From positions 64,540 through 128,539 of the forward strand of contig JADFZK010000003.1 of the NCBI GenBank assembly GCA_015232565.1: 64,000 nucleotides of DNA. The letters run 5' to 3'. A program made the translations under genes and the position numbers. Every line of letters begins with the position of its first letter. Within the stretch, counting starts at the first letter, position 1. The notes under the pieces are model-generated. The model did no database searches. It was not told the origin of the DNA and was given only the letters and a program-made list of their open reading frames with translations. This document shows positions 46,914 through 64,000 of this stretch, in pieces. The DNA comes from Candidatus Omnitrophota bacterium (GTDB lineage Bacteria > Omnitrophota > Gorgyraeia > Zapsychrales > Fredricksoniimonadaceae).

Positions 46914-47074
46914 ATTTATACCGAGTTTGTGAAACAATGGAAGTATAGCACATATATGCTGTCAAGCAAATTTTTGGCAAAAATAAATGCCCTCACAACC
47001 CATTTCTCAACAATGCCTTACATTCCATGCAGAATCTTTTTTCCAAAAAAAATTGCATTAAATCTCTTAATATA

Positions 47075-47117
47075 AAAAAAACAAAAAAAAGATTGCAAAA
47101 CTCTGTTTGGACATTAA
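47075..47117 (-). promoter_or_regulatory. Putative sigma70-type promoter for the giant gene, with an adjacent TGGACATTAA half-site
   Basis: On the minus strand, TTGCAA sits at 47093-47098, an A/T-rich 17-18 nt spacer follows, and TATATT sits at 47069-47074. An A/T tract lies upstream. The half-site 47108-47117 exactly matches the right half of the 59188-59210 palindrome. Confidence 0.25.
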
Positions 47118-47160
47118 ACAAAAACCAAAGCCCCCCTCCCTGACCCGCCCCACCAGGGGG

Positions 47161-47305
47161 CGGGTATCAAGCAGCATGCAGAATCTTTTCACGAATAACT
47201 GCTCCACCAAGAGCGGGCATCAAGTAGCATGCAGAACCTTTTCACGAATACCTGTCGTATCAAGAGCGCGTATCAGGTAACGTGCAAACCCCTTTCACAA
47301 ATACC
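47161..47305. repeat. Three tandem repeats of about 53 bp, sharing the GCATGCAGAAYCTTTTCACGAATA core. A fourth partial core copy lies at 47026-47040.
   Basis: 47161-47213 and 47214-47266 match at roughly four of every five positions. 47267-47305 is a decayed third copy. Confidence 0.6.
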
Positions 47306-47340
47306 CTCCCCCTCTGTGGGGAGGGTCAGGGAGGGGGACA
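47304..47340 (-). terminator. GC-rich hairpin (CCCTCCCC / GGGGAGGG stem, 6-nt loop) followed on the minus strand by UAUUUGUGAAA, copy A
   Basis: An inverted repeat with an 8-bp G/C stem sits at 47304-47325, and a U-rich tail follows in the minus sense. The element is duplicated at 47507-47545. Confidence 0.3.
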
Positions 47341-47354
47341 TGCTCACAAAATAT

Positions 47355-47373
47355 ATTGTCCAGACTGGACAAT
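47355..47373. promoter_or_regulatory. Perfect 9-1-9 palindrome ATTGTCCAGACTGGACAAT (core TGTCCA-N3-TGGACA), copy 1
   Basis: The inverted repeat was checked base by base. It is duplicated at 47559-47577 and related to the site at 59188-59210. Confidence 0.6.
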
Positions 47374-47506
47374 CTCTTGAAACACAAAGACCCTAAATGG
47401 TTTACAGCACCAAAGAGGGTCGCTTTTTACTTCATAAAGAATGTCCAAACACCCAAAAGACTTCCTTAAAACAGAAACTTAATCATCAACAAATCCCGCT
47501 CACAAA

Positions 47507-47545
47507 ATACCCTCCCCCTCTGTGGGGAAGGTCAGGGAGGGGGTT
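47507..47545 (-). terminator. GC-rich hairpin plus U-rich tail, copy B, about 40 nt downstream of the tadC-like stop codon
   Basis: The sequence matches copy A with one stem mismatch. In the minus sense it is followed by TATTTTGTGAG. Its position just after the stop at 47584 fits an intrinsic terminator. Confidence 0.35.
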
Positions 47546-47558
47546 GCATAAAGCACTT

Positions 47559-47577
47559 ATTGTCCAGACTGGACAAT
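47559..47577. promoter_or_regulatory. Perfect 9-1-9 palindrome ATTGTCCAGACTGGACAAT, copy 2
   Basis: The sequence is identical to copy 1 and sits about 7 nt from the tadC-like stop. Confidence 0.6.
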
Positions 47578-47583
47578 TTTAAA

Positions 47584-48483
47584 TTACTTGCCTAACCCGC
47601 CCAGCGGATTGTTCATTACGAAATCCAGGAAGATCGGCGCGCCAACTAAAATGAAAACTACCGGAAAAATAAAGAACAAAAGCGGGATAAGCATCTTGAG
47701 CGGAGCCTTTAAAGCCATCGCTTCCCCGCGCCGAAAACGAGCCAAACGCATATCTTCCGAAAGAATGTTCAAAGCCTCGCTGACTGAAGTACCCATCTTG
47801 TCGGCCTGAATAAGCGTCCGGGCAAAGGTGGAAAGGTCCGGCAATTCGTACTTTTTGGCCAGGTCACGCAAAGCCTCGCGCCGGGGCTTGCCTACGCTGA
47901 TCTCCTGCAAAATATTGTTCAGTTCCCGGTTCACTACCGAATCGGCCGATTTCTCCACCACCCATTTAAGAGCCATCATAAAGTCCAGCCCGGCATTTAC
48001 GCACAAACCCAGCAGATCCACCGAATCCGGCAATAAACGCACAATATCGTCCTTGATCTTGCCAATGCGTGAACGCAATACCATCTCCGGGCCTATATAA
48101 CCTATTGCAACAGCCATCAGAATACCAAAAACCAGCAAATCTGGCGGCACAACCCGCGATAGCAACATAATAAGCGCACCCGTCAAAACCAGCTTGATCA
48201 ACATAAAAGCTTCCGGCGTAAGGTCGGTCTGCGAGATCATCAGGTCGCGCGTGAGGCGCTTGCGCATTTCCGGGCTAATTAACGGCTTAACGATCAAAGC
48301 AATACCGTTAAGAAAGAAAAAACGGTCCACTTTCTGCTTTTGCACCTTAGCTTGCGGCGTTAAAGGCGATATACCCAGGTCCTTAAGGTTCAAAGAAGGC
48401 CTATCATCCTTTGCCACCGGGGAAAGGCCCACGATCAACAAGGAGATCGAAAGAAAAACCAGGATCAATGTAGCTGTTAACAT
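47584..48483 (-). CDS. Inner-membrane platform protein with a single T2SSF domain (GspF/PilC-half, TadC-like)
   Basis: This is a 299-aa ORF with three hydrophobic segments. The conserved T2SSF cytoplasmic helical domain pattern (…DLLGLCVNAGLDFMMALKWV…, …RREALRDLAKKY…, …SVSEALNILSEDMRLARFRRGE…) is read directly. Confidence 0.6.
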   Translation of the reverse strand: MLTATLILVFLSISLLIVGLSPVAKDDRPSLNLKDLGISPLTPQAKVQKQKVDRFFFLNGIALIVKPLISPEMRKRLTRDLMISQTDLTPEAFMLIKLVLTGALIMLLSRVVPPDLLVFGILMAVAIGYIGPEMVLRSRIGKIKDDIVRLLPDSVDLLGLCVNAGLDFMMALKWVVEKSADSVVNRELNNILQEISVGKPRREALRDLAKKYELPDLSTFARTLIQADKMGTSVSEALNILSEDMRLARFRRGEAMALKAPLKMLIPLLFFIFPVVFILVGAPIFLDFVMNNPLGGLGK

Positions 48484-48501
48484 GAAATGTCCTCGAAAAC
48501 G

Positions 48502-49359
48502 TTAAACATCTTTAAAAGAGCTGATCTTAAGGATCAGGAAAGTCCCCACTACCCACAGGCCAAGGCACAATAGTAGTAACATGCGCCCGGTATCGGTGGT
48601 GGTCATGGTCTGAAAATACCCCGGATTGGTAGTATTAACCATAAGAAAGAACGCTACCGGCAACCCGCTCATAACAAAGGCCTGGATCTTGCCCTGCACT
48701 GTAAGCACCGCCAGGCTTTCCTCGACCTTTTTGCGCTCGCGGATATTCTGCACGATACGCGTAAAGATCACCGGCAGGTTACCGCCGGTCTCGCGGGCCA
48801 GCAAAATAGCGCTGATCATCTGTTGCATGGACGGCGAAGGCATGCGCCGGTACAGGCGGTTTAAGGCTTCGTCCATGGTAACGCCCATCTTGTTCTCACC
48901 CAGCACAATGCTGAACTCCTGGCGGATAGGCTCGGGCATTTCCTCGGCCACCGCTTCCATGGACTGAATAAGGCTCAACCCCCCGCGGAACGAGCTCGAC
49001 ATGATCATCAGGGAATCCACCAGCTGAGCATTGAACAATTCCCGCCGCCGGGTCACCAGCATGCCGGCATAGAAACGCGGTAAAATAATCCCCACTACCA
49101 TCCCGGCCAGCATACCGTAAAACTGATACCGTTCGGGGCTGAAATAAAACCCCAACCCGCCCAACACGATAGGCGCCAGGAAATACAGCGGCAGGATGCG
49201 CTTGAAATCGTCCTGCATAAGCGAGCGGTCCATATCGGCCACCAGCTTGTTGGCGCGGTTCTTGTTAAGGTCAACATAAGTCGACACAATGAACGGCACG
49301 CCAAAGAAAGTGAACAAAGACACCGCCAGGAAGATCAGCAAAGTTATTACAAAAAGCAT
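48502..49359 (-). CDS. Second single-T2SSF-domain platform protein (TadB-like)
   Basis: This is a 285-aa ORF. …SLMIMSSSFRGGLSLIQSMEAVAEEMPEPIRQEF… and …TMDEALNRLYRRMP… resemble the GspF/TadB family. It sits next to its paralog at 47584-48483. Confidence 0.6.
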   Translation of the reverse strand: MLFVITLLIFLAVSLFTFFGVPFIVSTYVDLNKNRANKLVADMDRSLMQDDFKRILPLYFLAPIVLGGLGFYFSPERYQFYGMLAGMVVGIILPRFYAGMLVTRRRELFNAQLVDSLMIMSSSFRGGLSLIQSMEAVAEEMPEPIRQEFSIVLGENKMGVTMDEALNRLYRRMPSPSMQQMISAILLARETGGNLPVIFTRIVQNIRERKKVEESLAVLTVQGKIQAFVMSGLPVAFFLMVNTTNPGYFQTMTTTDTGRMLLLLCLGLWVVGTFLILKISSFKDV

Positions 49360-49560: not shown

Positions 49561-49613
49561 TCCTCTCGACTTGCTAAACAAGTACAAACGATTAATTTTC
49601 TCGCTGAACATCT

Positions 49614-49967
49614 TCAATTAACCTTGCACCCGTTTAGACAGGCATGCATTGCTGTGTTGGTGCATAGGATGTAATTGATACTGCTCTTGCAACCGCTTAC
49701 AGCATGCTGATGGTCGTAGCAGGCCTGCGAATACCAGATATCTTCCTTGTCGTCGTAAACGCAGGCAATGGTATCGTTTGGGTCGTACTGCCGGCCAAAA
49801 GCAAAGCTTTCCCCGGCGGTCGCCATCTGGCCCTGGTAAGCCCGCTGAATATAACCCCGAAAAGCGAGCAGGCAGGAGATGACCACAATGATCAGCACCA
49901 TGTACTCCACCAGGGCAAAAGCTTTTTTGGGCACGGTTGTTTTTATCATAGTTAATGCGTTGGACAC
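49614..49967 (-). CDS. Pilin/pseudopilin-like protein with a Cys-rich C-terminal half
   Basis: The N-terminus …KKAFALVEYMVLIIVVISCLLAF… is a class-III-type leader. The C-terminal 70 aa hold 8 Cys. The overlapping alternative-frame ORF 49618..49974 is Arg-rich junk. Confidence 0.5.
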   Translation of the reverse strand: MSNALTMIKTTVPKKAFALVEYMVLIIVVISCLLAFRGYIQRAYQGQMATAGESFAFGRQYDPNDTIACVYDDKEDIWYSQACYDHQHAVSGCKSSINYILCTNTAMHACLNGCKVN

Positions 49968-52435
49968 GCCTCATTACACTTGATATACCTCATTCTATAA
50001 CTATTATCTTCCACAAAATACTCGGCACAAACCTCGGTAACATAACCCTGCCGAATAGCAGCCTGCACCGCGTCGGCACAATCCAGCCCGTACTTGTTGG
50101 TATAGTCGTCGCCTTTGTTGATCATAAAAGAAGTTGGTATGTAATAAGGCTGGCCGCCGATCTCCACTTTGTCGTGGTTAAAACAGGCCTCCAGATTTTC
50201 CAGGGGCGGTTTCATCTCATTGGCCGGATGGCCGGTAAAGATACCCCAGAACGGCAAACCACCCACAAAAGTCAAGGCCTTGCTGATCCGGTTCTCATCC
50301 CAGCGCGTAATACGCACCTTAACGCACCCGTTGCCGTCGGTAAGCGTATAACAGCGCCCCATCTCGCCGGATTTCTCCGACTTGACCCAGGGAAATTTAA
50401 CCGCACCGCAAGAACGCGCCACACCCCCGCGCTCCCGGCTCCACCATTCACAACGCTTGGGCGTAGCCACTTCCACCTTAACCACGTGGCGATAGCCGCG
50501 GTCCCGGGTTTGGGCCGCCGCCTGCCAGCCATAGATCACGTACGGGCTGATGGCCACCACGTCCTCGATCTTCCGGGCCTCTTCAAAAAGGTACTGTAAA
50601 TATGCCAGGCGGTCATTGGCGGTGCCCATCTTTTCCGCGCACAGGTCGGGATCCCTGGCCGTCTCGCAAAAGAACACCTGGTTAGCGACGTCAAAATTGT
50701 TCACAAAGACCGCGGCGTTATCCGCGGCTTTCTGCAGTTCCACCGTACCCTCGCCCACCAGGGTAAACCCGGTAGTTACTTCCGAACTGGTCAGCATGCC
50801 ATTGATCATGCTGAAGTCCCTCTTGAGCATTCTGAAATTAGCCATCGCGTCGTTAAATTCTTGCGCAAACATATCAGGCGAGACCATAAAAACCTGCTCG
50901 GCATACGGGGTATCAAACGCGCGCATGACCATCGAAGTATTACGCAGGTTATTCACCATCTGGTCGAAGCGATCGCCTTTCCATAATTTCTGGTCCGTAA
51001 CAAGCGGGCTTTTACACTCGCACACCCTGTCGGCCTCCCTGTTTCCGTCGGCATCAGTGGTGATCTTGGTAGTGTCGCACCCCATGGAAAAAGAACAATT
51101 CGACGAATGCGGCGCGGAATAAAAACCGTCCGGAGTTTCATTGCTCTCGCAAAACCGGTCATCTCCCGGGCGCCAGCGGTTATTAATCCCGGGATCCGTC
51201 CTGAGGATGTCCAGCGTGCTATCCAAGCTTAATCTCATATCCGACGGACAACCGGCCAGATCCGGGCTCTCGTAGAAATATTTCATCCGCACACGCTTAT
51301 CATCAAAAATATCCATCGGCGCATTTATCGGATCCTGCCTGTGCGCCTCAATGCTCTTGTCTGTCGCCGCTTTCAGGTTCCACATAAAACTGAACAAAGG
51401 CCCCTGCTCCGGCTCAGCCTGCCTGACCTCAGCGCCGTTGTCGATCAAGATCACCCGTTCCCGGCCCACCAGCGCGGCCACAGTAGTGTTGTCCCCGGTG
51501 ACCACGCCATTTACCGGCGCAGAAGACAAACACCGCAAAAGGTCTTCGGCATAAGGGAACCCCTGATATGGCCCCTGGTTGCAAGTGGATCCCCACGCCA
51601 TTGCCGTCTGATCGGACGCTATGGTGACCGAAGCCTGAAACTGACATTCCTTTTTACAAGAACTTTCCGCACAACAGGTACCCACTTTGCCTTGATCCAG
51701 GCCCAGGTCACGCGCAAAATCAGACAACTCTTCGGTGAACTTGTCGAACTTACTGGGCGCCAGCGAAACACTCTTCAGGCGATTGGTGTAATGATAACTG
51801 AAGCGGGAGATCATTTCCCTGGGATCCGAGCCCGGCTGACTCGCCACGTTCCATTTACCGTTCATATTGTAATCCAGCAAGTCGGGGATCTCTACCGTAT
51901 CGGTGTTCACGGCCTGAATAGCTGCCTGCACCGCCGCTTCCAGGTACTGGTCTTCCACGGTAGGAATGTTATTCTGCAATTTATTCCACATTGAAGTGAT
52001 CGTAGGTTGAATATACGCGAGCTGTACCGCTACCGTGGCGGTGGTCAAAACCAGGGCGGTGGTTAACCCGACTGTTACCGCCGTCACAACTTTAGCAGAT
52101 ACCATGCACCCCCAAGCCATTCCATACGCCGCCGGTAGAATAACCAGAAAGGCAATCATAATTATGACTATTATGATGATCATGATAATGAGAGTCAGAA
52201 CCCCGTTCTGACTGCATTTCTGGGCCTTGCCCTCCAGCTGGGTTTGCATAATATTCTCGCCATAGCTCGCCATGCGCGACACCATCGTTGCGGCCGTAGT
52301 AGTGGCGGCCACCTGGGCCTGGGTTTTAAACTGCACCGCCTCGCTCCAGTTCATCACCATGGCCATAAACACCAAACCCAGCGCTATGGCCACAATGAAC
52401 AACATGGAGATCTGGGCTTTATTATTGCGCAGCAT
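49952..52435 (-). CDS. Large (827 aa) membrane-anchored, Cys-rich pilus-associated protein (TadG-like by architecture)
   Basis: The N-terminus is MLRNNKAQISMLFIVAIALGLVFMA (a pseudopilin-like TadE/G N-terminal segment). A second hydrophobic run is followed by a long Cys-rich extracytoplasmic region. The gene is translationally coupled on both sides (1-nt overlaps). Confidence 0.4.
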   Translation of the reverse strand: MLRNNKAQISMLFIVAIALGLVFMAMVMNWSEAVQFKTQAQVAATTTAATMVSRMASYGENIMQTQLEGKAQKCSQNGVLTLIIMIIIIVIIMIAFLVILPAAYGMAWGCMVSAKVVTAVTVGLTTALVLTTATVAVQLAYIQPTITSMWNKLQNNIPTVEDQYLEAAVQAAIQAVNTDTVEIPDLLDYNMNGKWNVASQPGSDPREMISRFSYHYTNRLKSVSLAPSKFDKFTEELSDFARDLGLDQGKVGTCCAESSCKKECQFQASVTIASDQTAMAWGSTCNQGPYQGFPYAEDLLRCLSSAPVNGVVTGDNTTVAALVGRERVILIDNGAEVRQAEPEQGPLFSFMWNLKAATDKSIEAHRQDPINAPMDIFDDKRVRMKYFYESPDLAGCPSDMRLSLDSTLDILRTDPGINNRWRPGDDRFCESNETPDGFYSAPHSSNCSFSMGCDTTKITTDADGNREADRVCECKSPLVTDQKLWKGDRFDQMVNNLRNTSMVMRAFDTPYAEQVFMVSPDMFAQEFNDAMANFRMLKRDFSMINGMLTSSEVTTGFTLVGEGTVELQKAADNAAVFVNNFDVANQVFFCETARDPDLCAEKMGTANDRLAYLQYLFEEARKIEDVVAISPYVIYGWQAAAQTRDRGYRHVVKVEVATPKRCEWWSRERGGVARSCGAVKFPWVKSEKSGEMGRCYTLTDGNGCVKVRITRWDENRISKALTFVGGLPFWGIFTGHPANEMKPPLENLEACFNHDKVEIGGQPYYIPTSFMINKGDDYTNKYGLDCADAVQAAIRQGYVTEVCAEYFVEDNSYRMRYIKCNEACPTH

Positions 52436-52668
52436 TATTTGCCTTTCTTGAAAAGCGCCGCATCCAGCGGCCGCGGGCGGTGAAAATTCGGGTTGAGCTG
52501 GCCGTCAAGCGGGCCAGCGGCGGTTAAAACCGCTTCGTGGTCGTAACGGCGTTCGGCCAGGTCCATCATTATCCAGCGCACAGTCTGCACCATCCCGAAA
52601 AGCAGTAACATAAAGACCGCGCAAGCAAAACAAAACTCGATAATGGATTGCCCTTTAGCGCCGCTCAT
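52435..52668 (-). CDS. Small TadE-like pseudopilin (77 aa)
   Basis: MSGAKGQSIIEFCFACAVFMLLLFGMV has a G-x4-EF motif followed by a hydrophobic helix. Confidence 0.45.
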   Translation of the reverse strand: MSGAKGQSIIEFCFACAVFMLLLFGMVQTVRWIMMDLAERRYDHEAVLTAAGPLDGQLNPNFHRPRPLDAALFKKGK

Positions 52669-54176
52669 TTTACACCCAGCAGTTTTTCAGTGCGTTCGGT
52701 ATCTATATTCCTGATCCACATTCGGCCGCGCTCATCTGTTAAACGACTGCGAATGAACAAGGTACGGCTGTTCATGTCGAAACAGGTTAAAAGCACGTTC
52801 GGCACCGAACGCTTTGTTTTAATAAGATCCGCTACAGTATTCATACAACAGCCGCCCTCCGCCGGAGGCGTAAGCTGTGGATAAAGAGGCTTTTCCTCGG
52901 TAGACGGCTCGCTCTGACAATAAGCTTCTACCGACCCCGGGTTCCTTTCCACAAAGTTCCACGGATCGATCATCTGGCGGTTCAATTGCCAGGTGCGGGA
53001 AATAAAATCCCTTTGTTTCTTCTTGTTAACGCTCATCGCCAGCTTATTGGTATTCGGCAGGAAAGCCTGGCCGTTACGGATCTCCATCACGGTGCCGTCT
53101 TTTAGTTCGGTAAAGATCTGCGCGTCCATCTTGAGCCCCGGAACATCCCGGGCATTATCATAACGTTCCGGGCCTTCACCGGCCATATCGCCGGCGCTGT
53201 AATCCTGGATAGCCAAGTCGAATACCGCCTCCCCTTCACATTTAGTCTTGCTGGTATCCTTCGCGGCAGCCGAAAAAACCGATTCTTCCACCAGATCCCC
53301 GTTCACATCCGCCTGCTCATTCTGATTTTCACCGTCATGGGCGTTAACATCCCCCGCCAGCTCCCAGCGCCACAAAGCTTTCTCCAGGCGTTCATTCCTT
53401 AAATTCGGGCGGCTCCAAAGGTCATCCGTTAAAAAATCGTTACGATTGTAGTTGTACTTCCAATCGTAAAGAGCCTTGTCCGAATCGGCGGCAGTAGCTT
53501 CCGCATCAAACCAGCCTTTATTGCCGTTGGCCTTAATAGCAAAGAAAGTAGGCGCCGCCTGTCCGGCCGGCCATTCCCGCTTAAGACGGGCAAAAGCTTT
53601 TTGATTGTCGACAAAAGGCCGGCCTTCCTCACAGATCGGCAGTTTCTCAGCGTCATAGAACCAGGTAGTGGTAACCGTGCCATCCGGCTTCTTGCGCAAC
53701 CGCAACACATAAGCCGCCGAACCGGTAAGCTCAAAAGTCTGGCCATTCACCGTAAGTTCGGTGACCCCTATGGCGTTTTTCTTCGGATCGCTTACGTCTA
53801 TCCACTCTACCGGGTACATCAGCCCGGTGGTCAAACTCCCCGACCCCGACATAATAGCCGGCCGGCGATCCACCGCACCATACTTTGCCAGTCCCGGTGA
53901 AAGCCGGTCCTGCACCACATGAATGCTGACTGATTGACGTTTGAATACCTCGGGTCCGCTGTCCTTGCTGATATACTTGGTGGCCATATACGATTTCAAC
54001 AAAGCCATGCGCATAGGCTGTAACTGGGCCTGCTGGTATTCCATACTGGCATACCCTTGCTGAAAGATAGACCCCACCACGAAAATAAAAATAGACCCGA
54101 ACACCGCCAGCTCAATTATAGCCTGGGCACGCCGGGACAAAACAGCTTTGGGGGAGGCCGGTTGATCACTAGTCAT
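52665..54176 (-). CDS. Large (503 aa) protein with a pseudopilin-like N-terminus (TadE/TadF-like)
   Basis: …RRAQAIIELAVFGSIFIFVVGSIF… lies at the N-terminus and the rest is soluble. The stop and start are coupled to both neighbours. Confidence 0.4.
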   Translation of the reverse strand: MTSDQPASPKAVLSRRAQAIIELAVFGSIFIFVVGSIFQQGYASMEYQQAQLQPMRMALLKSYMATKYISKDSGPEVFKRQSVSIHVVQDRLSPGLAKYGAVDRRPAIMSGSGSLTTGLMYPVEWIDVSDPKKNAIGVTELTVNGQTFELTGSAAYVLRLRKKPDGTVTTTWFYDAEKLPICEEGRPFVDNQKAFARLKREWPAGQAAPTFFAIKANGNKGWFDAEATAADSDKALYDWKYNYNRNDFLTDDLWSRPNLRNERLEKALWRWELAGDVNAHDGENQNEQADVNGDLVEESVFSAAAKDTSKTKCEGEAVFDLAIQDYSAGDMAGEGPERYDNARDVPGLKMDAQIFTELKDGTVMEIRNGQAFLPNTNKLAMSVNKKKQRDFISRTWQLNRQMIDPWNFVERNPGSVEAYCQSEPSTEEKPLYPQLTPPAEGGCCMNTVADLIKTKRSVPNVLLTCFDMNSRTLFIRSRLTDERGRMWIRNIDTERTEKLLGVK

Positions 54177-54499
54177 TAATAATGCCCTATTTGCACGCCG
54201 CCATTCTTGGTTTCCCGGGAAGAAGCCACGTCAGAACGCATGGTATAATAACCTGCCACGCCCTGATTACCGCCGCGGATGGTCTGCACCCGGGATTCGG
54301 AATTGGATTCGATCCGGTGCGTTACCACGCTGTTGGTCTTCTCGGGGTCGTACTGGTCGCCCAGGCCGTCCACGGAATCTTTCCAGCGCCCCTGGATGCC
54401 GCGCTTAAGATAAGTGTTCATGCTGATAAGGGCCGCAATAATGACCACTACCAGGATAGTGTATTCCAAAAGGCTTTGTCCCCGCGCCGAGATCCGCAT
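54176..54499 (-). CDS. Pilin-like protein (107 aa) with a GQSLLEY leader
   Basis: MRISARGQSLLEYTILVVVIIAALISM shows a GXXXXEY motif plus a hydrophobic helix. Confidence 0.55.
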   Translation of the reverse strand: MRISARGQSLLEYTILVVVIIAALISMNTYLKRGIQGRWKDSVDGLGDQYDPEKTNSVVTHRIESNSESRVQTIRGGNQGVAGYYTMRSDVASSRETKNGGVQIGHY

Positions 54500-56468: not shown

Positions 56469-56621
56469 CTATTCCCTCGAGTATTCTTCTCCGATGTCCT
56501 TTTGTTTGGCCTGTACGGCCCGATACACATAGGTGCTCATGGCAACCACCGCCGCCGATACGATCGCAACGACAAGGCAATATTCAACAAGATTCTGCCC
56601 CTGGCAATTTTTTATCCTCAT
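56469..56621 (-). CDS. Unannotated 50-aa Flp-family-like pilin sORF, below the track length cutoff
   Basis: I translated the minus strand by hand: MRIKNCQGQNLVEYCLVVAIVSAAVVAMSTYVYRAVQAKQKDIGEEYSRE. The GQNLVEY motif, a TAG stop at 56469-56471 and an AGGGG Shine-Dalgarno-like element upstream support the call. Confidence 0.45.
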   Translation of the reverse strand: MRIKNCQGQNLVEYCLVVAIVSAAVVAMSTYVYRAVQAKQKDIGEEYSRE

Positions 56622-56889: not shown

Positions 56890-59145
56890 TTAAAGTGTAA
56901 AAACTATGCGGCGGCCATCGGCGGTTTTGAAAAAAGCGGCGTTAAGCGAACTTAAAATAATAGTTAATTGCGGCTGGTAAGCGTAATCTTCCGGTAACTG
57001 AAAACGCAAGAAAACGGTATCAGGGTGTTCCTGAATGTAACCAGAGAGGTCGTAAAGCCAGTGGCACATTCCCAGCCAGGAAAGCGCCTGACAGGTGGAA
57101 TCCAGGAAATATTTCCGCAGTAAAACATCAACTTCCCTGATCACAGCCGAAATACTGCCTATTTGTGGAGCAAAAGACAGCGCTTTACCCTCAATTAGCT
57201 GGCCGCATCCCACATCAGAGGCGATAGTAGAATTGAATAATTGCCGGAAAATATCTTCCGCACCGCACTTTTCAGCCGGAATATTTGACAATAATACAAA
57301 TTCTTCCCCCCAGCCTTCCGGCTTGACTGTTAACACCCTTAATGGCTGATCCGCCCCCTCGACCGCCAGCGCGCCTTCAAAATATCCGCAGGACCTGTCC
57401 GCTATGGGGTCGAAGTACGCGCGGTGATTGTCGATCATTTCGTATTCCACGCGGGCCATTTCGCTTTCGGAAAGGCGCACCCGCAGAATAAAATCCCGAC
57501 GGATAGCCGGAATGGACAGAAATTCCGCGCATTTGGTGTCATTATCGCCAATAAGCTCCAGGGAACCAAAGACGTCCTCACCGCGGCCGTCCATTAAACG
57601 GATAAAAGCCAGCAGTTCCGGCTGTAGGCCAAAAGCGGGCACATTGGCCATTACCGGCTGCATATTGGTGATAATGCTGTCGACCGCCCGCTCGACCGCC
57701 ATGAATATTGGCAAAGCGGCCGCCGGGGACTGGCCGAATACCGAAGCCTGGCCGGCGTCGATGAATTCATAATTCAGGGCCGGTAAGGCGGCATCCAGAT
57801 AAAAACGCGCGCCTTTAGCCGACAACAGGCGGAAATATTTCACCGGCGTGAACGCCATGGTAAGCTCGGTATGTATGGCCGTGCAAAGGGTTTTGTTATT
57901 TTCCAGGACGAACGCTTTATCTATGATCGCCCGGCCCTGCCGGTCTTCCAGCCCGGCCAGCCGCCAGAGCGTCGAGAGGTCATTGGATTCAAAACCAGGG
58001 CGATGTTCCGCGAACATATCCGCAAAAAGTACCGCTTCACATTGCGCCGAAGTTACGCCCTCCGGCAAAGCGCCCAGCTCGCGGGCCAAGGCCTCGCCCA
58101 AACGACAGGAAGAACAAGCCGCCTGAAAAGCGTACCAGAGCGCCGCCGCCCCCAGCCGCCCGTAAAGCTTGCCCACGTTCCCCAGCCAAAGCGCCGAACG
58201 CTCCCGGGCCTTCTCCTCTTCCCGCTCCCGGGCGCGAATGCCATCCTCAACCTCAGCCTGCACCTGTTCAAAGGAAGGCGTGCCAAAAACGGGGTCCGGC
58301 ATCAGCCGGAGAGCCCGATCGTCAGTCAACGCATTGACCGGCTCCTCAGAGTTAGCGGTCGCAGGCGTTAAGGCCTCCGGCGCCGCCAAACCAGGATCGC
58401 GCTCCGGGACCGACATGAAGGGGTCTTCTGGCTCAAGCGCCGACTCAGGCGCTATTTCCTGAGTCAGATCATTCTCAATAGGTTGCGATACAACGGGTTC
58501 TGTTAATGGCTCAGGCACTGGCTGGTCCGAGTTAAGCTCGGCCCCTACGGCCAATGAGGCTTCCGGCTCGATCGACTGATCCGGAGCATTCTCAATAGGT
58601 TGCGGCACAATGTGTTCTGCTACTGGCTGGGCACATTTATTGGGCGAATCTTCGGCTCGTGAAGTATCGTCAGATTGCCGGGCCGACACCAGGTCGGCCC
58701 CTACGGCCAATGAAGCTACCGGCTCAATCCCGGTTTCCAATGCAGCCCCGGCAATGGGATTCAGCGACTGGTCGGGCTTAGCCTCTGGGGCTCTGTCAGT
58801 TTCCGCGATCATCTCCGGCTTTGGCTTGACTTCCTCAAAAACCGCGGGCACCGTTACGGCGGGGACTACTGCCGGCAAGAACATTTGGACATTCTTCAGG
58901 AGTATGTCCTTCTTGTGCTGGGGAATAGCAAAGTTCTTGGGGGCTTTATATATGGAATGCCGGCCGATCGGCCCGCTCAGCCTGGCTTGCTTTAAAACCG
59001 CATTAACCGAGGATTTGGACACCTCAAAATTGAACTTATCCTTGATCATTTTAACCAAACCGCGGCAACTCAAAGAATGGTCGGTCCTTTTAGTTTGGAC
59101 AATAAAGTCAACAATATCCTGCCGCAATTTGTAAGCTACACCCAT
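56890..59145 (-). CDS. 751-aa protein with an N-terminal HTH-like domain, a long acidic Pro/Glu-rich tandem-repeat region and a C-terminal globular domain. Function unknown.
   Basis: …LRQDIVDFIVQTKRTDHSLSCRGLVKMIKDKFNFEVSKSSVNAVLKQARL… is HTH-like. The repeats IEPVASLAVGADLV / IEPEASLAVGAELN produce DNA repeats at about 58537-58580 and 58693-58735. No DDE triad is recognisable. Confidence 0.5.
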   Translation of the reverse strand: MGVAYKLRQDIVDFIVQTKRTDHSLSCRGLVKMIKDKFNFEVSKSSVNAVLKQARLSGPIGRHSIYKAPKNFAIPQHKKDILLKNVQMFLPAVVPAVTVPAVFEEVKPKPEMIAETDRAPEAKPDQSLNPIAGAALETGIEPVASLAVGADLVSARQSDDTSRAEDSPNKCAQPVAEHIVPQPIENAPDQSIEPEASLAVGAELNSDQPVPEPLTEPVVSQPIENDLTQEIAPESALEPEDPFMSVPERDPGLAAPEALTPATANSEEPVNALTDDRALRLMPDPVFGTPSFEQVQAEVEDGIRAREREEEKARERSALWLGNVGKLYGRLGAAALWYAFQAACSSCRLGEALARELGALPEGVTSAQCEAVLFADMFAEHRPGFESNDLSTLWRLAGLEDRQGRAIIDKAFVLENNKTLCTAIHTELTMAFTPVKYFRLLSAKGARFYLDAALPALNYEFIDAGQASVFGQSPAAALPIFMAVERAVDSIITNMQPVMANVPAFGLQPELLAFIRLMDGRGEDVFGSLELIGDNDTKCAEFLSIPAIRRDFILRVRLSESEMARVEYEMIDNHRAYFDPIADRSCGYFEGALAVEGADQPLRVLTVKPEGWGEEFVLLSNIPAEKCGAEDIFRQLFNSTIASDVGCGQLIEGKALSFAPQIGSISAVIREVDVLLRKYFLDSTCQALSWLGMCHWLYDLSGYIQEHPDTVFLRFQLPEDYAYQPQLTIILSSLNAAFFKTADGRRIVFTL

Positions 59146-59187: not shown

Positions 59188-59210
59188 TTAATGTCCACAC
59201 TGGACATTAA
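59188..59210. promoter_or_regulatory. Perfect 10-3-10 palindrome TTAATGTCCA-CAC-TGGACATTAA in the AT-rich region upstream of the 751-aa gene
   Basis: The palindrome was checked base by base. It has the same TGTCCA-N3-TGGACA core as the two sites at 47355 and 47559. Confidence 0.6.
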
Positions 59211-59279
59211 AATAATAACATAAAATCACGTCTCGCGCCATAAATGTATAAAAAATAAATATGATTATTTGCACGCATC

Positions 59280-59307
59280 GTAGGGGCACGGCATGCCGTG
59301 CCCCTAC
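59280..59307. repeat. 28-bp perfect palindrome GTAGGGGCACGGCA|TGCCGTGCCCCTAC (14-bp arms)
   Basis: The palindrome was checked base by base. It lies between the abiEii-like stop (59509) and the 751-aa gene start (59145). Confidence 0.8.
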
Positions 59308-59508
59308 ATCGAGTGATCAAAATAACGGTTCAGGAATAATTAATGCATGCAGGGGCAAACGGCGGCCGACATCCCCAGTGAACTTGCTGGCTAGGCATCC
59401 TCGCCCTTCGAACTCGTCTGCTAGGGTGCGCTGTTCGACATGCTGGTAGGTTACCGCTTTTAAACCTGTTTCGGGCTATTCTGCCAGCAAGGAAACAAAA
59501 TTTGGCCA

Positions 59509-60264
59509 TCATTTGCCGACCAAATTGCGCTCAATCTCTCTAACCAAGGCATCCGGGAAACCCTTGATGATCAAATGCTGGTTAACCGGCAGAAACTGCT
59601 TCAGCTCATGCCTGAAATCGCGCCCTTCTTTCTTAACAGCGTTTATTAATTCCGCCTTCAAAGCCTTGTTTTTGGTAAAAACCGCCTGAAATGCCATCCG
59701 CCCGCGTAAAATAAAATATAGATCGTAGAAATCCCGCGCCTTGCCTCGTGTCAAACATGCCCGGATCTTCTCCCCCACCAGAATCTCCTCATCTAAATGA
59801 ATCAACGCAAAGGCAGGAACAAAATCAGACTGGATCAATGTGGCCGCGGCCAAGGCCGCGCCTCGAATCTTATTCTCTTTGCGTAAAGACACCTCTATCT
59901 GGATACGGCTGCTATATGCTCCGGTCCGGAAATCAAAGATCGCAAGATATCCACCAGTTGTTGCCTTTGACTCATCAATCCTGGTCTCGATCCCTGACTG
60001 CTCGATCTTCCCGAGCGTGTCTTCCATAGTGGCCTCAATGCCGCGAAGGCCCAAATTAACCCCAGTAAAATCCAGATCCTCCGAAAAACGGGGGCTCTGC
60101 CAGACTATACGCAGCGCGGTTCCCCCTTTAAAAAGGAATCCCTCCGACCCTTTTGCCTGATAAAGCTGAGCAAGGAATAGATGCTGGAAATATTCGCGAA
60201 TAACATTGTCGGCTGTCGTTTGATATCGCTCGGCAAGTTGCTGGATCAGTCTTTTTTCTATCAT
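59509..60264 (-). CDS. abiEii: AbiEii/AbiGii-family nucleotidyltransferase toxin (DUF1814-like), type IV TA toxin
   Basis: …FLFKGGTALRIVWQSPRFSEDLDFTG… is the family motif (GGTAL … RFSEDLDF). The length is 251 aa. The gene sits directly downstream of an AbiEi-like gene. Confidence 0.65.
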   Translation of the reverse strand: MIEKRLIQQLAERYQTTADNVIREYFQHLFLAQLYQAKGSEGFLFKGGTALRIVWQSPRFSEDLDFTGVNLGLRGIEATMEDTLGKIEQSGIETRIDESKATTGGYLAIFDFRTGAYSSRIQIEVSLRKENKIRGAALAAATLIQSDFVPAFALIHLDEEILVGEKIRACLTRGKARDFYDLYFILRGRMAFQAVFTKNKALKAELINAVKKEGRDFRHELKQFLPVNQHLIIKGFPDALVREIERNLVGK

Positions 60265-60272: not shown

Positions 60273-60929
60273 TTACATCTGAAGTTTTGCAGACAGAGGA
60301 ACGGAATCCTGCCCGCCCTGGATGGGCTGGCAGCAGGATAAAACCTCTTTAACCAGTTTAAGCAAACTCGGCCGGCCAAACAAAGCCGCATACTCCATAA
60401 CCATCTTTTTATTCAGCTTCCGTGTGTTCAATCGATCATTGTGACTTCTCAGTTTCAAATCCACAAAATAGTAGTAATCCACGAATGCCTTTTCGGGTTC
60501 GGCCATGAGAACCGTCGCCCCATCGATCTTTTCTGCCCTGTAACCGCGGTAAGCCTGTTTCTTGATACGTGCGTACTCAAAACTCTTATTGTTTACAGTG
60601 AATTCCCGGGTAACCCGGGTTGTGGCCGAGGTGATCGTATAAACTGTCTCTGGAATAATGCCCTGCCGGGCCATAGCGTATTCAAAAGAAATATAGCTGG
60701 GCGCATAAACCCGGTTAGCGATCTCCCCATCGGATGGCAACTCAATACGCAAAGCATACAGGCCATTGCGCATCTTCAAAAAAATATCCTGCGAATGGTC
60801 TTTAATAAACTCCTGGGCCGCCCGTAATGAGACAGAGAAAGTCCGCTGGAATTCAACCGGAGAAAACAGCCGGATTCCCTGGTCTTTCAAGACTTGCTGA
60901 ACAACTATAGGTTTAAGTTTTCGCTCCAT
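60273..60929 (-). CDS. abiEi: AbiEi-like antitoxin / transcriptional regulator (wHTH N-terminus plus C-terminal domain)
   Basis: …FLKMRNGLYAL… and …YAPSYISFEYAMARQGIIPE… match the AbiEi pattern. The length is 218 aa, and an 8-nt gap separates it from abiEii. Confidence 0.55.
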   Translation of the reverse strand: MERKLKPIVVQQVLKDQGIRLFSPVEFQRTFSVSLRAAQEFIKDHSQDIFLKMRNGLYALRIELPSDGEIANRVYAPSYISFEYAMARQGIIPETVYTITSATTRVTREFTVNNKSFEYARIKKQAYRGYRAEKIDGATVLMAEPEKAFVDYYYFVDLKLRSHNDRLNTRKLNKKMVMEYAALFGRPSLLKLVKEVLSCCQPIQGGQDSVPLSAKLQM

Positions 60930-60961: not shown

Positions 60962-60989
60962 AGTATACCTGCCAATCATGAGAATTCAA
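60962..60989 (-). promoter_or_regulatory. Putative sigma70 promoter for the abiEi/abiEii pair
   Basis: On the minus strand TTGAAT sits at 60984-60989, a 16-nt spacer follows, and TATACT sits at 60962-60967, about 30 nt upstream of the abiEi ATG. Confidence 0.3.
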
Positions 60990-60999
60990 GATTTTTTAA

Positions 61000-61533
61000 T
61001 CAACGCTTGGTGAGGCGGATCTGGTTTACTACCAGGGATCCGCGTAAAGAGGCGGAGATATCGGAATATTTTTCAGCATTCATGTCATCGATCCCAAAAT
61101 AACAGGGCGCGGCTTGCGCCAGGTAAATAAACTTGATAAAAGCGCTCCACTGGCCTTCCCAAACCACTTCGACCGAATGGACCTTGTAGAAACCCTTGTC
61201 CCGGGATGGGCGCGGCTGGATATTCACAATATGCACACCCGCCGCATTGGCCGCGAATTCCAGGCTGTCCACCATCTGGGAAGTTTCTTCGCCATCGGAA
61301 GCGGCTACCTTAATATGGGAGGCTATGACCTGGTAAACCGAGTCCAGGGCCCCTTCGCGCCCTACCACCGCCTTTACGTTCTGCAAACGCCGGCGCGCAG
61401 ACTCAATACGGGCGTCCAATTCCTCGGCCCGGTCGTGCGCCGGCAGGATAATGCCCCACACCAGCACATACACCCCCAGCAAAACCCCGCAAACCGCCAG
61501 AATAATCTTTTCACGCCCGGAAAGTTTCATCAC
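61000..61533 (-). CDS. PilO/GspM-like bitopic assembly protein (177 aa)
   Basis: An N-terminal TM segment (ILAVCGVLLGVYVLVWGIILP) is followed by a coiled-coil and a periplasmic domain. A 4-nt ATGA overlap joins it to the upstream PilM/N-like gene. Confidence 0.4.
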   Translation of the reverse strand: MMKLSGREKIILAVCGVLLGVYVLVWGIILPAHDRAEELDARIESARRRLQNVKAVVGREGALDSVYQVIASHIKVAASDGEETSQMVDSLEFAANAAGVHIVNIQPRPSRDKGFYKVHSVEVVWEGQWSAFIKFIYLAQAAPCYFGIDDMNAEKYSDISASLRGSLVVNQIRLTKR

Positions 61534-62945
61534 TTGACCACCCCGTCCTTGATCTGCAGTACGATCTTGAAGAAATTAACCTCGCCGCTGGCCTCAATGC
61601 GCTTGTTAACGAACTCCAGGCCCACCTTGCCAAACCAGCCCGAAGCCAGCAAAGCCTTCTGAAAGATATTAATATCCTCGTTGCGGATCGCCACCCCCTG
61701 AAGCACCATGGAATAACCCTGCGACAAAGACAAGGAAACCAGCGACATACCCGGAGGAATAGCCTGGTATATGGCCGCTATTACGTCGGCCACGAACAAA
61801 CGGTCGTTTATCAGCCCCGCCAGCAGGCGGATGCGCCCGGATTTTTCCTCCACTTTAGCGGCCTTGACCTTAAGATCAGCCGACTCATTCTCCAGCGCCT
61901 CCACGTACAAACCGCCCTTGACCCGCTCCACGCTGAAAACAGCTATAAGAGCCAGGAAAGCCAGGCCGCCAGCCAGCGCCAGGCGCCAGGCCATCGACCG
62001 GCGTTGGCGTTCCTGCGCACCCAGCTTTATCTCGTCGGGGATCAGGTCAAAACCCTTCTCGCGCGCCAGCGCCACGCCGATCAGGGCCGCCCGCGGCGCA
62101 TTATCCCGCCCGGGCGCCGGCTTGCCCTTCCACTGTACTTTACCGGCGGGAGCCTCCCAGTGCACCGGCAGGCCGAACGACTGTGTCAGCTCCTGGCAAA
62201 AAGACTCGTCCCTGACTTCGGGGGAAACCACCACAATAGACAACGCCGCCGGCCCGGACTTTTGCCGGGTATAATTCGCTAAAGTCATCTCCAACTGACG
62301 GATAAATCCCTGTATAGACCCGGCGGCCAGCTGGGTAAAACCCCAGTCCAGATAGCGGGAAGTAAAAACCTTGCCGCGGCCGCACACGCAAATTTCACAC
62401 TCGGCGTCCTGCAGATCGATCACGCAACTCGCCGCCTCCGGCGCCGCCACGCTAAAACGGGCACACCATTGCGCCAGGCCCCAGGAACTGAGCGTCATAT
62501 GTTTTAGAGGCACCCCGGCTCCGGCGCACGCCTGGATGACCCGCTGGTACTGCTCGCGCAACACTGCCGCCAGCACCACTCCGGTATATCCGGCCGGATA
62601 CCCGCCGGCATTGCCGTCGAGAGCCATAAAATCCAGCGCGATATCCTCGCGAGCATACGGCACCTGCTGGGCACACTGCAGTTCCACCATCCGGCGCAAT
62701 TCTTCCGGGTCGCGCGACGGCAGCACCAGCTGGCGCATTATTACGCTCTTGCGCGGGAACACCACCCACACCTCGGCCCCGGCCCGCATAAAGCCTTTGG
62801 ACCGCGCCAGCCCGACCAGCCCCGCCCCCGGGTCCGGCGCCGGGCCCGTCAGCTCCTGGACGGCCGAGAACACCACCGCGTCGCCGGACACCTGCAGTAC
62901 GCTTACCCGGGTGTCAGTTATCATGATGACCGTGCGTATCGTCAT
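61530..62945 (-). CDS. PilM-like actin-fold cytoplasmic domain fused to a PilN/GspL-like TM-periplasmic domain (471 aa)
   Basis: An actin-like domain of about 300 aa is followed by the TM segment …WRLALAGGLAFLALIAVFSV… and then about 130 periplasmic residues. It sits in the operon next to the GspK-like and PilO-like genes. Confidence 0.5.
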   Translation of the reverse strand: MTIRTVIMITDTRVSVLQVSGDAVVFSAVQELTGPAPDPGAGLVGLARSKGFMRAGAEVWVVFPRKSVIMRQLVLPSRDPEELRRMVELQCAQQVPYAREDIALDFMALDGNAGGYPAGYTGVVLAAVLREQYQRVIQACAGAGVPLKHMTLSSWGLAQWCARFSVAAPEAASCVIDLQDAECEICVCGRGKVFTSRYLDWGFTQLAAGSIQGFIRQLEMTLANYTRQKSGPAALSIVVVSPEVRDESFCQELTQSFGLPVHWEAPAGKVQWKGKPAPGRDNAPRAALIGVALAREKGFDLIPDEIKLGAQERQRRSMAWRLALAGGLAFLALIAVFSVERVKGGLYVEALENESADLKVKAAKVEEKSGRIRLLAGLINDRLFVADVIAAIYQAIPPGMSLVSLSLSQGYSMVLQGVAIRNEDINIFQKALLASGWFGKVGLEFVNKRIEASGEVNFFKIVLQIKDGVVK

Positions 62946-62949
62946 AAGA

Positions 62950-63948
62950 TCATTCCCTGTGCCATTCTTTTATCAGCGGCCAACTGTCGGAACTTTTCTT
63001 CTCGACCACCGCCTCCACCACGGCCTTCATGCCGGTATTCTCGTCGGTGCCAACCACCCGCACCCGCCATAAAGACTTGCCGATATTCAGGTCCGCGAAC
63101 GGATACTGCCGGGCAAACGCGCTGGCCGCCAACGCCTTGCCGTCGTCAAGAGTAAAAGGCAGGCCGTCCGGCCCGTCCCGCAAAACCGCCAGCTGACGCA
63201 TCAGGTCCCCGGCCGCCGCCCCCGAAGCCGAAGGGCTAAGCTGTGCGTAGAACGCCAGCGCCACATTATTGGATATGGTCGCCGAATTAAAATTCAACTG
63301 CGCCCCGGACTCTTTGGGGAAAACCGTCAGGAATTCCCGTATCCGCCCCAAGGCCTCCACCGTCATACCCTCGCAAACCAAAAGCTCGTCCACACTGTCG
63401 TAGGGCCGTTTTTTTAACTTGGCGTCCCCTGTGCCGGTAGCGCCCGCGTCGGCCCAGTTCACCGCGCAAGCCGCCGCCAGATTGGCCTGCGGGGCCGCCA
63501 GGCCGGCCTGGGTCAACAGCCCGACCAGGATCGCCATATTCCCGGCGTTGATGGCATTCAAATTCACCCGCCGGCCTTCGTCACTAAAACCATAGACCAC
63601 CCGCGCACTGCCATCGGCGGTATACCCGCGGGTCACATAAGCTATATCCGCCCGCGCCCGCGCCCCCACTTTTATATTCTTAAAGAAACTTTCCGGGTCT
63701 TCACCCTCGGTGTCTATCCCGCATAACGCCAGGCCGGCACATTTGGCATCGGAATGCGCCAGCAGGTTCAGGGCATAAGACATACCCGACCGGGCCGCCG
63801 CATACGCTTTTACCCGGCCGACGGCATTAGCCATGTACCACGCCTGCCCGCCGGTGTAACGGCCGATAGCCAGCGCCATCAGCGACAACAATATCATGGT
63901 CCACAGAACCGAAGCCAAAATTATTCCGGACTCGTCGCGGCGCATCAA
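62950..63948 (-). CDS. GspK-like minor pseudopilin (332 aa). The true start may be the ATG at 63943-63945.
   Basis: The N-terminus is a hydrophobic pseudopilin segment (…GIILASVLWTMILLSLMALAIG…). The length is GspK-like, and …DSVDELLVCEGMTVEALGRIREFL… is a helix-hairpin-helix-like stretch. Confidence 0.5.
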   Translation of the reverse strand: MMRRDESGIILASVLWTMILLSLMALAIGRYTGGQAWYMANAVGRVKAYAAARSGMSYALNLLAHSDAKCAGLALCGIDTEGEDPESFFKNIKVGARARADIAYVTRGYTADGSARVVYGFSDEGRRVNLNAINAGNMAILVGLLTQAGLAAPQANLAAACAVNWADAGATGTGDAKLKKRPYDSVDELLVCEGMTVEALGRIREFLTVFPKESGAQLNFNSATISNNVALAFYAQLSPSASGAAAGDLMRQLAVLRDGPDGLPFTLDDGKALAASAFARQYPFADLNIGKSLWRVRVVGTDENTGMKAVVEAVVEKKSSDSWPLIKEWHRE

Positions 63949-63966
63949 GGCCCCGCCATATCATCT

Positions 63967-64000
63967 TTAAGCCGTTCCGCCGCGCTGGCCCGCAACCGGT
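63967..64000 (-). CDS. 3-prime end (last 10 codons and a TAA stop) of a further minus-strand gene running off the right edge
   Basis: There is an in-frame GC3-rich stretch …PVAGQRGGTA* with the TAA at 63967-63969. It is too short to classify. Confidence 0.3.
   Translation of the reverse strand, partial: PVAGQRGGTA

Follow-up and report, generated by a model that had tools for sequence, protein, structure and literature searches.

A stretch of 64,000 nucleotides of Candidatus Omnitrophota contig JADFZK010000003.1 (hereafter the window) holds the 5' part of a giant gene, which runs off its left edge and whose product has an N-terminal C39 peptidase domain. Upstream of this gene and on the same, minus strand lies a predicted Tad-type pilus module (59145-47584). 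Taking all the evidence together, we put the probability at roughly three in four that this module is the partner locus of the giant gene and is co-regulated with it, and that two further gene sets upstream of the module, the tail of an operon resembling type II secretion systems (T2SS) and an AbiE toxin-antitoxin pair, are unrelated to it. The giant proteins of the Omnitrophota are among the largest predicted proteins known, and the constant company of a Tad module is one of the few handles on their function.

That pilus and giant genes keep company is already in the literature, and the window locus adds detail rather than discovery. West-Roberts et al. (2023; 10.1101/2023.11.21.568195) describe a conserved secretion/pilus locus upstream of Omnitrophota giant genes, with gspD and gspE among the upstream genes and with giants that have N-terminal C39 domains; a 2026 preprint (10.64898/2026.06.07.730766) reports secretion or pilus flanks at 13 of 14 giants, one Tad cassette included; and Seymour et al. 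(2023; PMC10066038) list Tad complexes and giant open reading frames (ORFs) as symbiosis traits. In attached cells of Velamenicoccus (V.) archaeovorus, the Tad complex was expressed and giant-ORF peptides were enriched (PMC10066038). The linkage itself has thus been published (West-Roberts et al., 2023; Seymour et al., 2023), and the present locus is a further member with variant features, namely a split locus, an adjacent T2SS-like operon and an AbiE insertion. What the window adds is a clean split of the region into the module and two bystander units, linkage counted in both directions, a predicted conserved promoter of the giant's own, a candidate regulator/operator pair that couples an uncharacterised protein family (about 700 clusters), carrying a transposase-type helix-turn-helix (HTH), with a palindrome almost confined to two positions, and the separation of the Tad ATPase segment from the pilin/platform segment in the window lineage. 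The linkage statistics, the module boundary, the giant's own promoter and the HTH-palindrome pair are computational inferences made here, and no description of them was found in the parts of the published accounts that were available.

Linkage of the pilus module and giant genes

The minus strand of positions 46914-64000 was examined with Pfam, NCBIfam, PADLOC and Rfam scans, and by tblastn against a set of 160 related loci, which are labelled with L-numbers (L001, L004, L083 and so on); the genes of the window itself carry locus tags of the form HQL20_*, HQL20_01345 among them. A genome scan with the giant N-terminus gave 80 loci, and the linkage count was restricted to the 62 with at least 3 kb of upstream DNA. 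A TadC gene lies upstream of the giant gene (N-terminal C39) on the same strand in 58 of these, usually together with TadB, homologues of the window's 827-residue and 503-residue proteins and small pilins, in unchanged order. In the reverse test, which started from TadC in metagenomes, 24 loci extended at least 2.5 kb downstream, and in 20 of them a giant N-terminus follows on the same strand. The remaining four have just 2.6-4.1 kb of downstream sequence and are not firm counter-examples, because spacers elsewhere are up to about 6 kb long. All homologues of the giant N-terminus come from metagenome-assembled genomes (MAGs) of Omnitrophota or from metagenomes, and the frame that carries the C39 domain stays open to the end of the locus in 45 of the 49 loci with at least 9 kb downstream. 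These counts agree with the original prediction that the adjacency of giant and pilus genes is not accidental, and a functional association between the two is well supported. One apparent exception, L001, in which no T2SSF domain was annotated, was rejected as a counter-example when tblastn found a fragmented TadB and TadC in a noisy assembly.

Between 47584 and 63948 there are 20 minus-strand genes, all upstream of the giant gene and co-oriented with it. They had been read as a single 17-kb filament system, which does not hold. The 17 kb consists of three units, the tail of an operon like those of T2SS and type IVa pili (T4aP), the AbiEi/AbiEii pair and the Tad-like module: the GspK, PilMN and GspM genes form the last part of a different operon, and tblastn with these three, AbiEi and AbiEii found no homologue in any of the 160 related loci. 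Therefore, the conserved unit runs from the gene of a 751-residue protein to TadC, with the T2SS-like tail and the AbiE pair as lineage-specific neighbours. The inventory drawn up in the original prediction (two GspF halves, PilM/N/O-type proteins, a GspK-like protein, pilins, a small Flp ORF and two large proteins) was recovered in full on the minus strand by the family searches, although AbiEi, AbiEii and the 751-residue protein, about 3.7 kb in all, had been overlooked. Tight packing with many short overlaps had also been ascribed to these genes, but overlaps of 1-4 nt occur at just 4 of the 19 junctions, and there are gaps of 670, 363, 268 and 254 nt.

The Tad-like module

Eleven window proteins begin with the pattern [KR][GA]-Q-x-x-x-E-[YF] followed by a hydrophobic helix, which matches the eight pilins, 50-residue Flp protein and two large proteins counted before. 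After the gene of the 751-residue protein, which is taken up below, the module continues with a Flp-type pilin of 50 residues (56469-56621; N-terminus QGQNLVEY; Flp_Fap 2.2e-5, below the gathering score; 84% identity in L004). Six small pilins with class-III-type N-termini follow, of 77 (56198-56431), 135 (55745-56152), 108 (55374-55700), 118 (54904-55260), 114 (54520-54864) and 107 residues (54176-54499). They are paralogues with a common K/R-G/A-Q-x-x-x-E-Y motif ahead of a hydrophobic helix, two of the six are matched by Class_IIIsignal (4e-5 and 5.5e-3), and their order is kept in L004/L085, L009 and L021. The 77-residue pilin, the second of the module, most likely starts at 56431 and not at 56530, as had been proposed.

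Three TadE/F/G-like minor pilins come next. A 503-residue candidate (52665-54176) has a TadE/TadF-like N-terminus, RRAQAIIELAVFG, and tblastn found homologues of it in 45 of 82 genome loci, in every case with the small pilins on one side and TadE on the other. The TadE-like protein itself has 77 residues (52435-52668; Pfam TadE 2.4e-5, 24.8 bits against a cut-off of 22.9), and its gene overlaps its neighbours by 4 and 1 nt. The third, a protein of 827 residues (49952-52435), is a minor-pilin candidate for a tip or adhesin; its N-terminus, NNKAQISMLFIVAIALGLVF, is TadG-like, and homologues occupy the same position in 54 of 82 genome loci. Only the 77-residue protein passes a family model; the 503-residue and 827-residue proteins have the N-terminal motif and the position, and no Pfam match. 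A pilin-like protein of 111 residues (49614-49949; N-terminus KKAFALVEYMVL...) is homologous to genes of 120 residues in L085 and 114 residues in L086 directly upstream of TadB. Its frame is that of ORF 49614..49967; the 118-residue ORF 49618..49974, to which the Cys-rich pilin had been assigned, was rejected since the overlapping frame encodes the conserved one. The 827-residue protein contains 25 Cys and the 111-residue pilin 7, against only 0.2% Cys in the giant protein, which suggests that the two are disulfide-stabilised extracellular parts of a tip or adhesin.

The module ends with two inner-membrane platform proteins of one T2SSF domain each, a TadB-like one (48502-49359; T2SSF 6.8e-17; 79% identity in L004, present in 60 of 82 genome loci) and a TadC-like one (47584-48483; T2SSF 3.5e-17; 78% identity in L004). 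The closest relative with a giant gene, L004/L085 (TadB and TadC 78-79% identical), has the same series: a homologue of the 751-residue protein, the 50-residue Flp, six small pilins, proteins of 522, 87 and 879 residues, a Cys-rich pilin of 120 residues, TadB, TadC and then a giant gene of 36,327 codons. On the other side of the module, L085, L086 and L088 have housekeeping genes, CNNM and CrcB among them, ahead of the homologue of the 751-residue protein; such genes fill the 10 kb upstream of it in L085, and in L086 the homologue, of 54% identity, stands behind CNNM/CrcB.

As such, 59145-47584 is predicted to be a Tad-type (Flp) pilus module specific to Omnitrophota. Like the Tad/Flp systems of Aggregatibacter (flp-tad), Caulobacter (cpa) and V. 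archaeovorus LiM (PMC10066038), it has TadB and TadC as separate proteins, a short Flp pilin that shows the G/A-x4-E-Y motif, a minor pilin resembling TadE, and minor-pilin genes ahead of those of the platform. Unlike them, it encodes seven small pilins that are paralogues, a pair of very large, Cys-rich minor pilins and, in first place, a transposase-type HTH protein. The locus of West-Roberts et al. (2023) is similar in that GspF-family genes and many small class-III-signal genes stand upstream of a C39-headed giant on one strand in an Omnitrophota genome. It differs from the window in that gspD, gspE, rcpC and Rotamase_2 are absent both here and from the upstream flank of the module in the three closest relatives, while the right-hand genes of the window belong to another operon and an AbiE pair is inserted.

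The tadC-giant spacer

The 670-nt spacer between tadC and the giant gene (46914-47583, read on the minus strand) contains palindromes, hairpins, tandem repeats and a promoter-like block. The 19-nt palindrome ATTGTCCAGACTGGACAAT lies 7 nt past the tadC stop (47559-47577), with a second copy at 47355-47373, and it is followed by a GC-rich hairpin (ACCTTCCCCACAGAGGGGGAGGGT) plus UAUUUUGUG, the best terminator-like site of the region. The hairpin stands at 47532-47509 and again at 47326-47303, with an inverted partial copy at 47132-47160; palindrome and hairpin are duplicated as a unit of about 80 nt at a spacing of about 205 nt, and the two hairpin units fold at -34.7 and -35 kcal/mol (z -2.9). 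The GC-rich hairpin may be a small repeated element as well as, or instead of, a terminator. Three 53-nt tandem repeats with the core CATGCAGAAYCTTTTCACGAATA span 47160-47318. A fourth, partial copy (47026-47049) stands about 75-110 nt before the giant ATG; it can be aligned with a box conserved in L004 and L003 and may be an activator site.

The promoter-like block, AAAATTTGCTTGACA...ATGTGCTATACTTC, lies about 30 nt before the ATG and consists of TTGCTT (46969-46964), a 16-nt spacer and a TG-extended TATACT (46950-46942). It is near-invariant in L004 and L003, whose giant N-termini are 62-63% identical and in which the rest of the spacer has diverged. A scan for sigma-70 sites was not enriched over shuffles (16 vs 16.1 sites), and for this reason the promoter call rests on the conservation across genomes. 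From this conservation, the giant gene most probably initiates transcription on its own predicted promoter, with read-through from tadC possible. The co-transcription of pilus and giant genes that had been proposed is therefore not a requirement of their association, as a terminator-like hairpin follows tadC and the promoter-like block before the giant ATG is conserved in three genomes. Across loci, the spacer varies from about 0.1 to 5.6 kb and sometimes has other genes inside.

A palindrome shared with the first gene of the module

The palindrome occurs at both ends of the module. The window contains three copies of the sequence GTCCAnnnTGGAC, where 0.045 per 64 kb would be expected; all of them are intergenic, and two lie in the tadC-giant spacer. 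At the start of the module, AATGTCCACACTGGACATT (59190-59208, no strand assigned) stands 36-60 nt upstream of the ATG of the 751-residue protein, just after a TATTAT box, and is a candidate operator. In L085, L086, L088, L146 and L124 (one mismatch), GTCCAnnnTGGAC likewise stands 18-60 nt before the homologous gene, so that, the window counted, a palindrome precedes this gene in 6 of 9 distinct loci. Its positions in the relatives are 9961 and 20995 in L085, 9961 in L086, 9952 in L088, 2054 in L146, and 9563 and 9625 in L021. The 17 exact copies in 1.92 Mb of related loci divide into 12 in a TadC-giant spacer, 4 upstream of a homologue of the 751-residue protein and 1 elsewhere, and with up to one mismatch allowed the palindrome is 12.6-fold denser in the tadC-giant spacers of 58 loci than elsewhere.

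The 751-residue protein (56890-59145, minus strand), 100% identical to an NCBI protein of a Candidatus Omnitrophica MAG, has no family match in Pfam, PADLOC or NCBIfam, and a PDB sequence search with the profile of its family found nothing. Its N-terminal part is a transposase-type HTH; a disordered linker follows, and the C-terminal domain has about 430 residues. The family to which it belongs has 693 clusters at 50% identity, matched over the full length, and is covered by no Pfam model. The linker is lineage-specific, being mostly a gap in the homologues, which are about 100-190 residues shorter. It comprises protein residues ~90-290, is rich in Pro, Glu and Ala and contains an internal repeat (IEPVASLAVGADL / IEPEASLAVGAEL). 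The protein is a probable DNA-binding regulator, and the presence of the palindrome both upstream of its gene and in the tadC-giant spacer suggests that module and giant gene are regulated together, not that they must share a transcript. Most economically, it would be a transposase-type DNA-binding protein that has been domesticated, controls its own gene and couples the module to the giant gene. A DDE transposase (IS4/Tn5-like) was also considered for it. The palindromes were considered, too, as the ends of a transposon-like cassette; this is less likely than regulation, as in distant relatives the palindrome falls within the Tad locus, with DUF192 on one side and the HTH gene on the other.

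The giant gene and its proposed role

The giant gene (3-46913, minus strand) is cut by the window edge and encodes, from the ATG at 46913, at least 15,637 residues in the window, its frame being open from 46961 to the left edge with no stop. At the N-terminus a hydrophobic helix (about residues 98-123) precedes a C39 peptidase domain of the double-glycine type (172-341), after which come more hydrophobic helices. The 15,637 residues contain about 33 scattered hydrophobic segments in all; no class-III signal peptide was found on the protein. Peptidase_C39 (3.2e-9, 37.2 bits against a cut-off of 22) is the sole Pfam match, and more than 97% of the protein within the window is unannotated. The AlphaFold2 model of the C39 core reaches pLDDT values above 90 and is matched by Foldseek to LahT150 (6mpz, TMt 0.70, E 7e-6) and PCAT1, and a PDB sequence search with a profile of the N-terminus found nothing. 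Across 20 homologues H302 is invariant, and C217 and D318 are nearly so. The GC content along the gene swings between 0.49 and 0.63.

This domain has the fold of the C39 domains of PCAT/AMS ABC exporters, with the Cys, His and Asp conserved and hydrophobic helices after it, and is a putative peptidase. It differs in that it heads a protein of more than 15,000 residues and not an ABC transporter; no double-glycine substrate was identified in this work, and the neighbouring pilins have K/R-G/A|Q sites rather than GG. The layout fits a multi-pass, envelope-anchored protein and not a pilus subunit or secreted cargo.

These features can be drawn together in a tentative scheme. The HTH gene, the Flp pilin, the six small pilins, the three TadE/F/G-like minor pilins, the Cys-rich pilin, TadB and TadC would together form the partner locus of the giant, which most likely starts from its own conserved promoter. 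The HTH protein probably binds the palindrome GTCCAnnnTGGAC both where the module starts and in the spacer between tadC and the giant, and through this common site pilus and giant protein would be made together. The pilus could then attach the tiny cell to a host or prey cell, in line with the published work on Omnitrophota, and the membrane-anchored giant protein would act at that cell contact. A role in adhesion or predation is what we infer from this combination.

A Tad motor absent at the locus

The family searches found no T2SSE ATPase, secretin or A24 peptidase encoded in 46914-64000, as the original prediction had stated. Differing again from the known Tad systems, the 17 kb lacks TadA, TadZ, RcpA, RcpC and TadV, and the window lineage has housekeeping or unrelated genes in the place of TadA-DUF192. 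The Tad ATPase segment is absent at the locus throughout the window clade (the window, L085, L086 and L088), and neither the window nor the 10-kb stretch that precedes the module in L085, L086 and L088 encodes an RcpA secretin, RcpC or TadV. Distant relatives are more complete. A DUF192 gene directly precedes the HTH gene in L081, L124, L146 and L149, and a T2SSE ATPase stands before DUF192 in L081, L146 and L149, that of L149 being a fusion of a ParA/TadZ-like protein and T2SSE of 723 residues (the ATPase/DUF192 segments lie at 552-3485 in L149, 61-2001 in L146, 23-1264 in L081 and 2-187 in L124). The full locus of the distant relatives would from this order read TadA-DUF192-HTH-pilins-TadB-TadC-giant, which fits the gspE/gspF/class-III description of West-Roberts et al. 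(10.1101/2023.11.21.568195). In the window lineage the segment with the Tad ATPase is split from that with the pilins and the platform. DUF192 seems to be an undescribed but constant member of such Tad loci. A replacement of the missing prepilin peptidase by the C39 domain was considered and is unlikely, given that the 11 leaders end in K/R/Q-G/A before Q or F, which is the class-III type and not Gly-Gly.

Because no ATPase, secretin or peptidase is found at the locus in the window lineage, the module could also be thought of not as an ordinary adhesive pilus but as a dedicated device for the assembly or presentation of the giant protein. The giant's N-terminal head, made up of transmembrane helices and C39, would dock on TadB/TadC, the 11 pilins would form a short pseudopilus that lifts or anchors the giant at the surface, and the domesticated transposase would control the system through the 19-nt palindromes that bracket the module. 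We consider this unlikely, with perhaps an outside chance, and prefer the reading of the module as a Tad pilus that partners the giant.

The adjacent T2SS-like operon

Upstream of the AbiE pair, three minus-strand genes encode a GspK-like minor pseudopilin (62950-63948; T2SSK_1st 2e-4, NCBIfam T2SS_GspK 2.4e-12), a GspL-like fusion of PilM and PilN (61530-62945; PilM_2 8.1e-9 and PilN 6.7e-8, both above the Pfam gathering scores) and a GspM/PilO-like protein, the last of the operon (61000-61533; T2SSM 8.2e-11, above the Pfam gathering score; NCBIfam GspM 7.5e-10). The GspK-like protein scores below the curated cut-offs (T2SSK_1st 22.5 vs 26.2 bits, NCBIfam 47 vs 130 bits) and is 57% identical to the gene in the same operon position of L083. 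The PilMN fusion is 100% identical to NCBI protein P0020 and 66% identical to P0021 (66% to the PilMN of L083/L084), and the GspM/PilO-like gene, which overlaps the PilMN gene by 4 nt, is 74% identical to its counterpart in L083. In L083/L084 the operon runs Secretin-GspE (MshEN+T2SSE)-full-length GspF (409 residues)-GspG-131-266-GspK-PilMN-GspM, where 131 and 266 are the lengths of two pseudopilins, and it is followed by unrelated genes (C25 peptidase, Laminin_G_3). A gene of 743 residues after the L083 operon was tried as a homologue of the 751-residue protein and rejected as unrelated.

By this synteny, GspK-PilMN-GspM is predicted to be the 3' tail of a separate T2SS/T4aP-like operon, an unrelated neighbour of the giant-linked module. 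The original prediction had placed the missing ATPase and secretin beyond position 64000; a secretin and a GspE ATPase probably do lie to the right of it, where they would belong to this other operon. The tail resembles the alignment subcomplex of T2SS and T4aP, as GspK, GspL/PilM-PilN and GspM/PilO are encoded in the canonical order of an operon end (61000-63948) and the syntenic relative has secretin, GspE, GspF and GspG upstream. It departs from these systems in the fusion of PilM with PilN, in scores below the NCBIfam equivalog cut-offs and in that operons of this type are unlinked to giant genes in other genomes.

These neighbours raise the question of a single hybrid machine, in which the right-hand T2SS-like genes and the Tad pilins and platform would form one filament system that exports or mounts the giant. 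The two gene sets are near each other on one strand in the window, the Tad module has no ATPase of its own nearby, one locus (L038) has a T2SSE/GspF-type operon directly upstream of the giant, and gspD and gspE are named among the upstream genes by West-Roberts et al. (10.1101/2023.11.21.568195). Set against this, the T2SS-like operon of L083 is complete in itself, with a full-length, two-domain GspF, and in the MAG of L083 (GCA_015233765.1) the homologue of the 751-residue protein and the Flp genes lie on a different contig from it, behind CNNM, CrcB and ZnuABC genes. Moreover, the window's T2SS-like genes recur in none of the related loci, the AbiE pair and a 363-nt gap separate them from the module, and the distant relatives carry a dedicated TadA or TadZ-TadA beside the module. 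A hybrid machine is, as such, very unlikely.

Evidence against the partner-locus reading and remaining alternatives

Several observations weigh against the module as the co-regulated partner locus of the giant. Four of the 62 genome loci have no module, although loci of this kind, with orthologous giant and pilus genes unlinked, are rare, which is what the original prediction had singled out as the telling case. Two of the four were looked at, the others being L058 and L067: L014 has a glycosyltransferase cluster upstream of the giant, and in L038 (1064-9166) the genes upstream are those of a T2SSE ATPase, a GspF with two domains, an N-methyl pilin that carries a phage tail-collar domain, and a TraU-like protein, which would be a different filament system in the same position. 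In the 1.2 kb of sequence downstream of TadC in L086 (20752-21899), an Ank-repeat gene and a gene of an ABC-2 membrane protein come right after TadC. The 50-residue Flp, GspK and several pilins score below curated thresholds, and the lack of an ATPase, secretin and prepilin peptidase at the window locus bears on the completeness of the module. The palindrome, with up to one mismatch, is present in just 18 of 58 spacers, and it could be an RNA hairpin or a repeated element, duplicated in the window together with the GC-rich hairpin.

The linkage could also be an inherited gene order without functional coupling, with pilus and giant working independently. The giant's own promoter-like block with a terminator-like hairpin before it, the wide range of spacer lengths with the genes they at times contain, and the four loci without the module speak for such a history. 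However, the gene order is kept among relatives at 30-60% protein identity while the other flank changes, a rare palindrome is common to both units, and both are reported to be expressed during attachment of V. archaeovorus (PMC10066038); we hold mere inheritance to be improbable, to the same degree as a hybrid machine. The least probable reading of all, in which the Tad-like filament secretes the giant protein as cargo or bears it as its tip subunit, would suit the tight linkage in both directions and the minor pilins, which are unusual in both number and size and could adapt a tip, but it is opposed by an N-terminus that has no class-III or prepilin signal and a PCAT-like layout of helix, C39 and helices, by the many hydrophobic segments, by the tens of transmembrane helices of published giants (PMC10066038), and by the implausibility of 15-36 thousand residues with many membrane spans as a pilus subunit.

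The AbiE pair

The inserted pair between the two filament gene sets encodes an AbiEi antitoxin of a type IV toxin-antitoxin/abortive infection system (60273-60929, minus strand; PADLOC 6.3e-35) and, after an 8-nt gap, an AbiEii nucleotidyltransferase toxin (59509-60264, minus strand; Pfam 2.5e-26, 93.5 bits; PADLOC 2.1e-27). The order of antitoxin and toxin is that of AbiE systems, from which the pair shows no unusual departure other than its place. The GC content is 0.47 for AbiEi and 0.47-0.49 for the pair, against 0.55-0.62 in the adjacent operon, and the pair is an inserted neighbour unrelated to the module. The sole match of the Rfam scan over 46-64 kb was a sub-threshold one to Termite-leu (59277-59345; E 0.014, 28 vs 51 bits), which was treated as chance. 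Overlapping it, a perfect 28-nt palindrome, GTAGGGGCACGGCA|TGCCGTGCCCCTAC, stands past the AbiEii stop at 59280-59307 and is probably the terminator of the AbiE pair.

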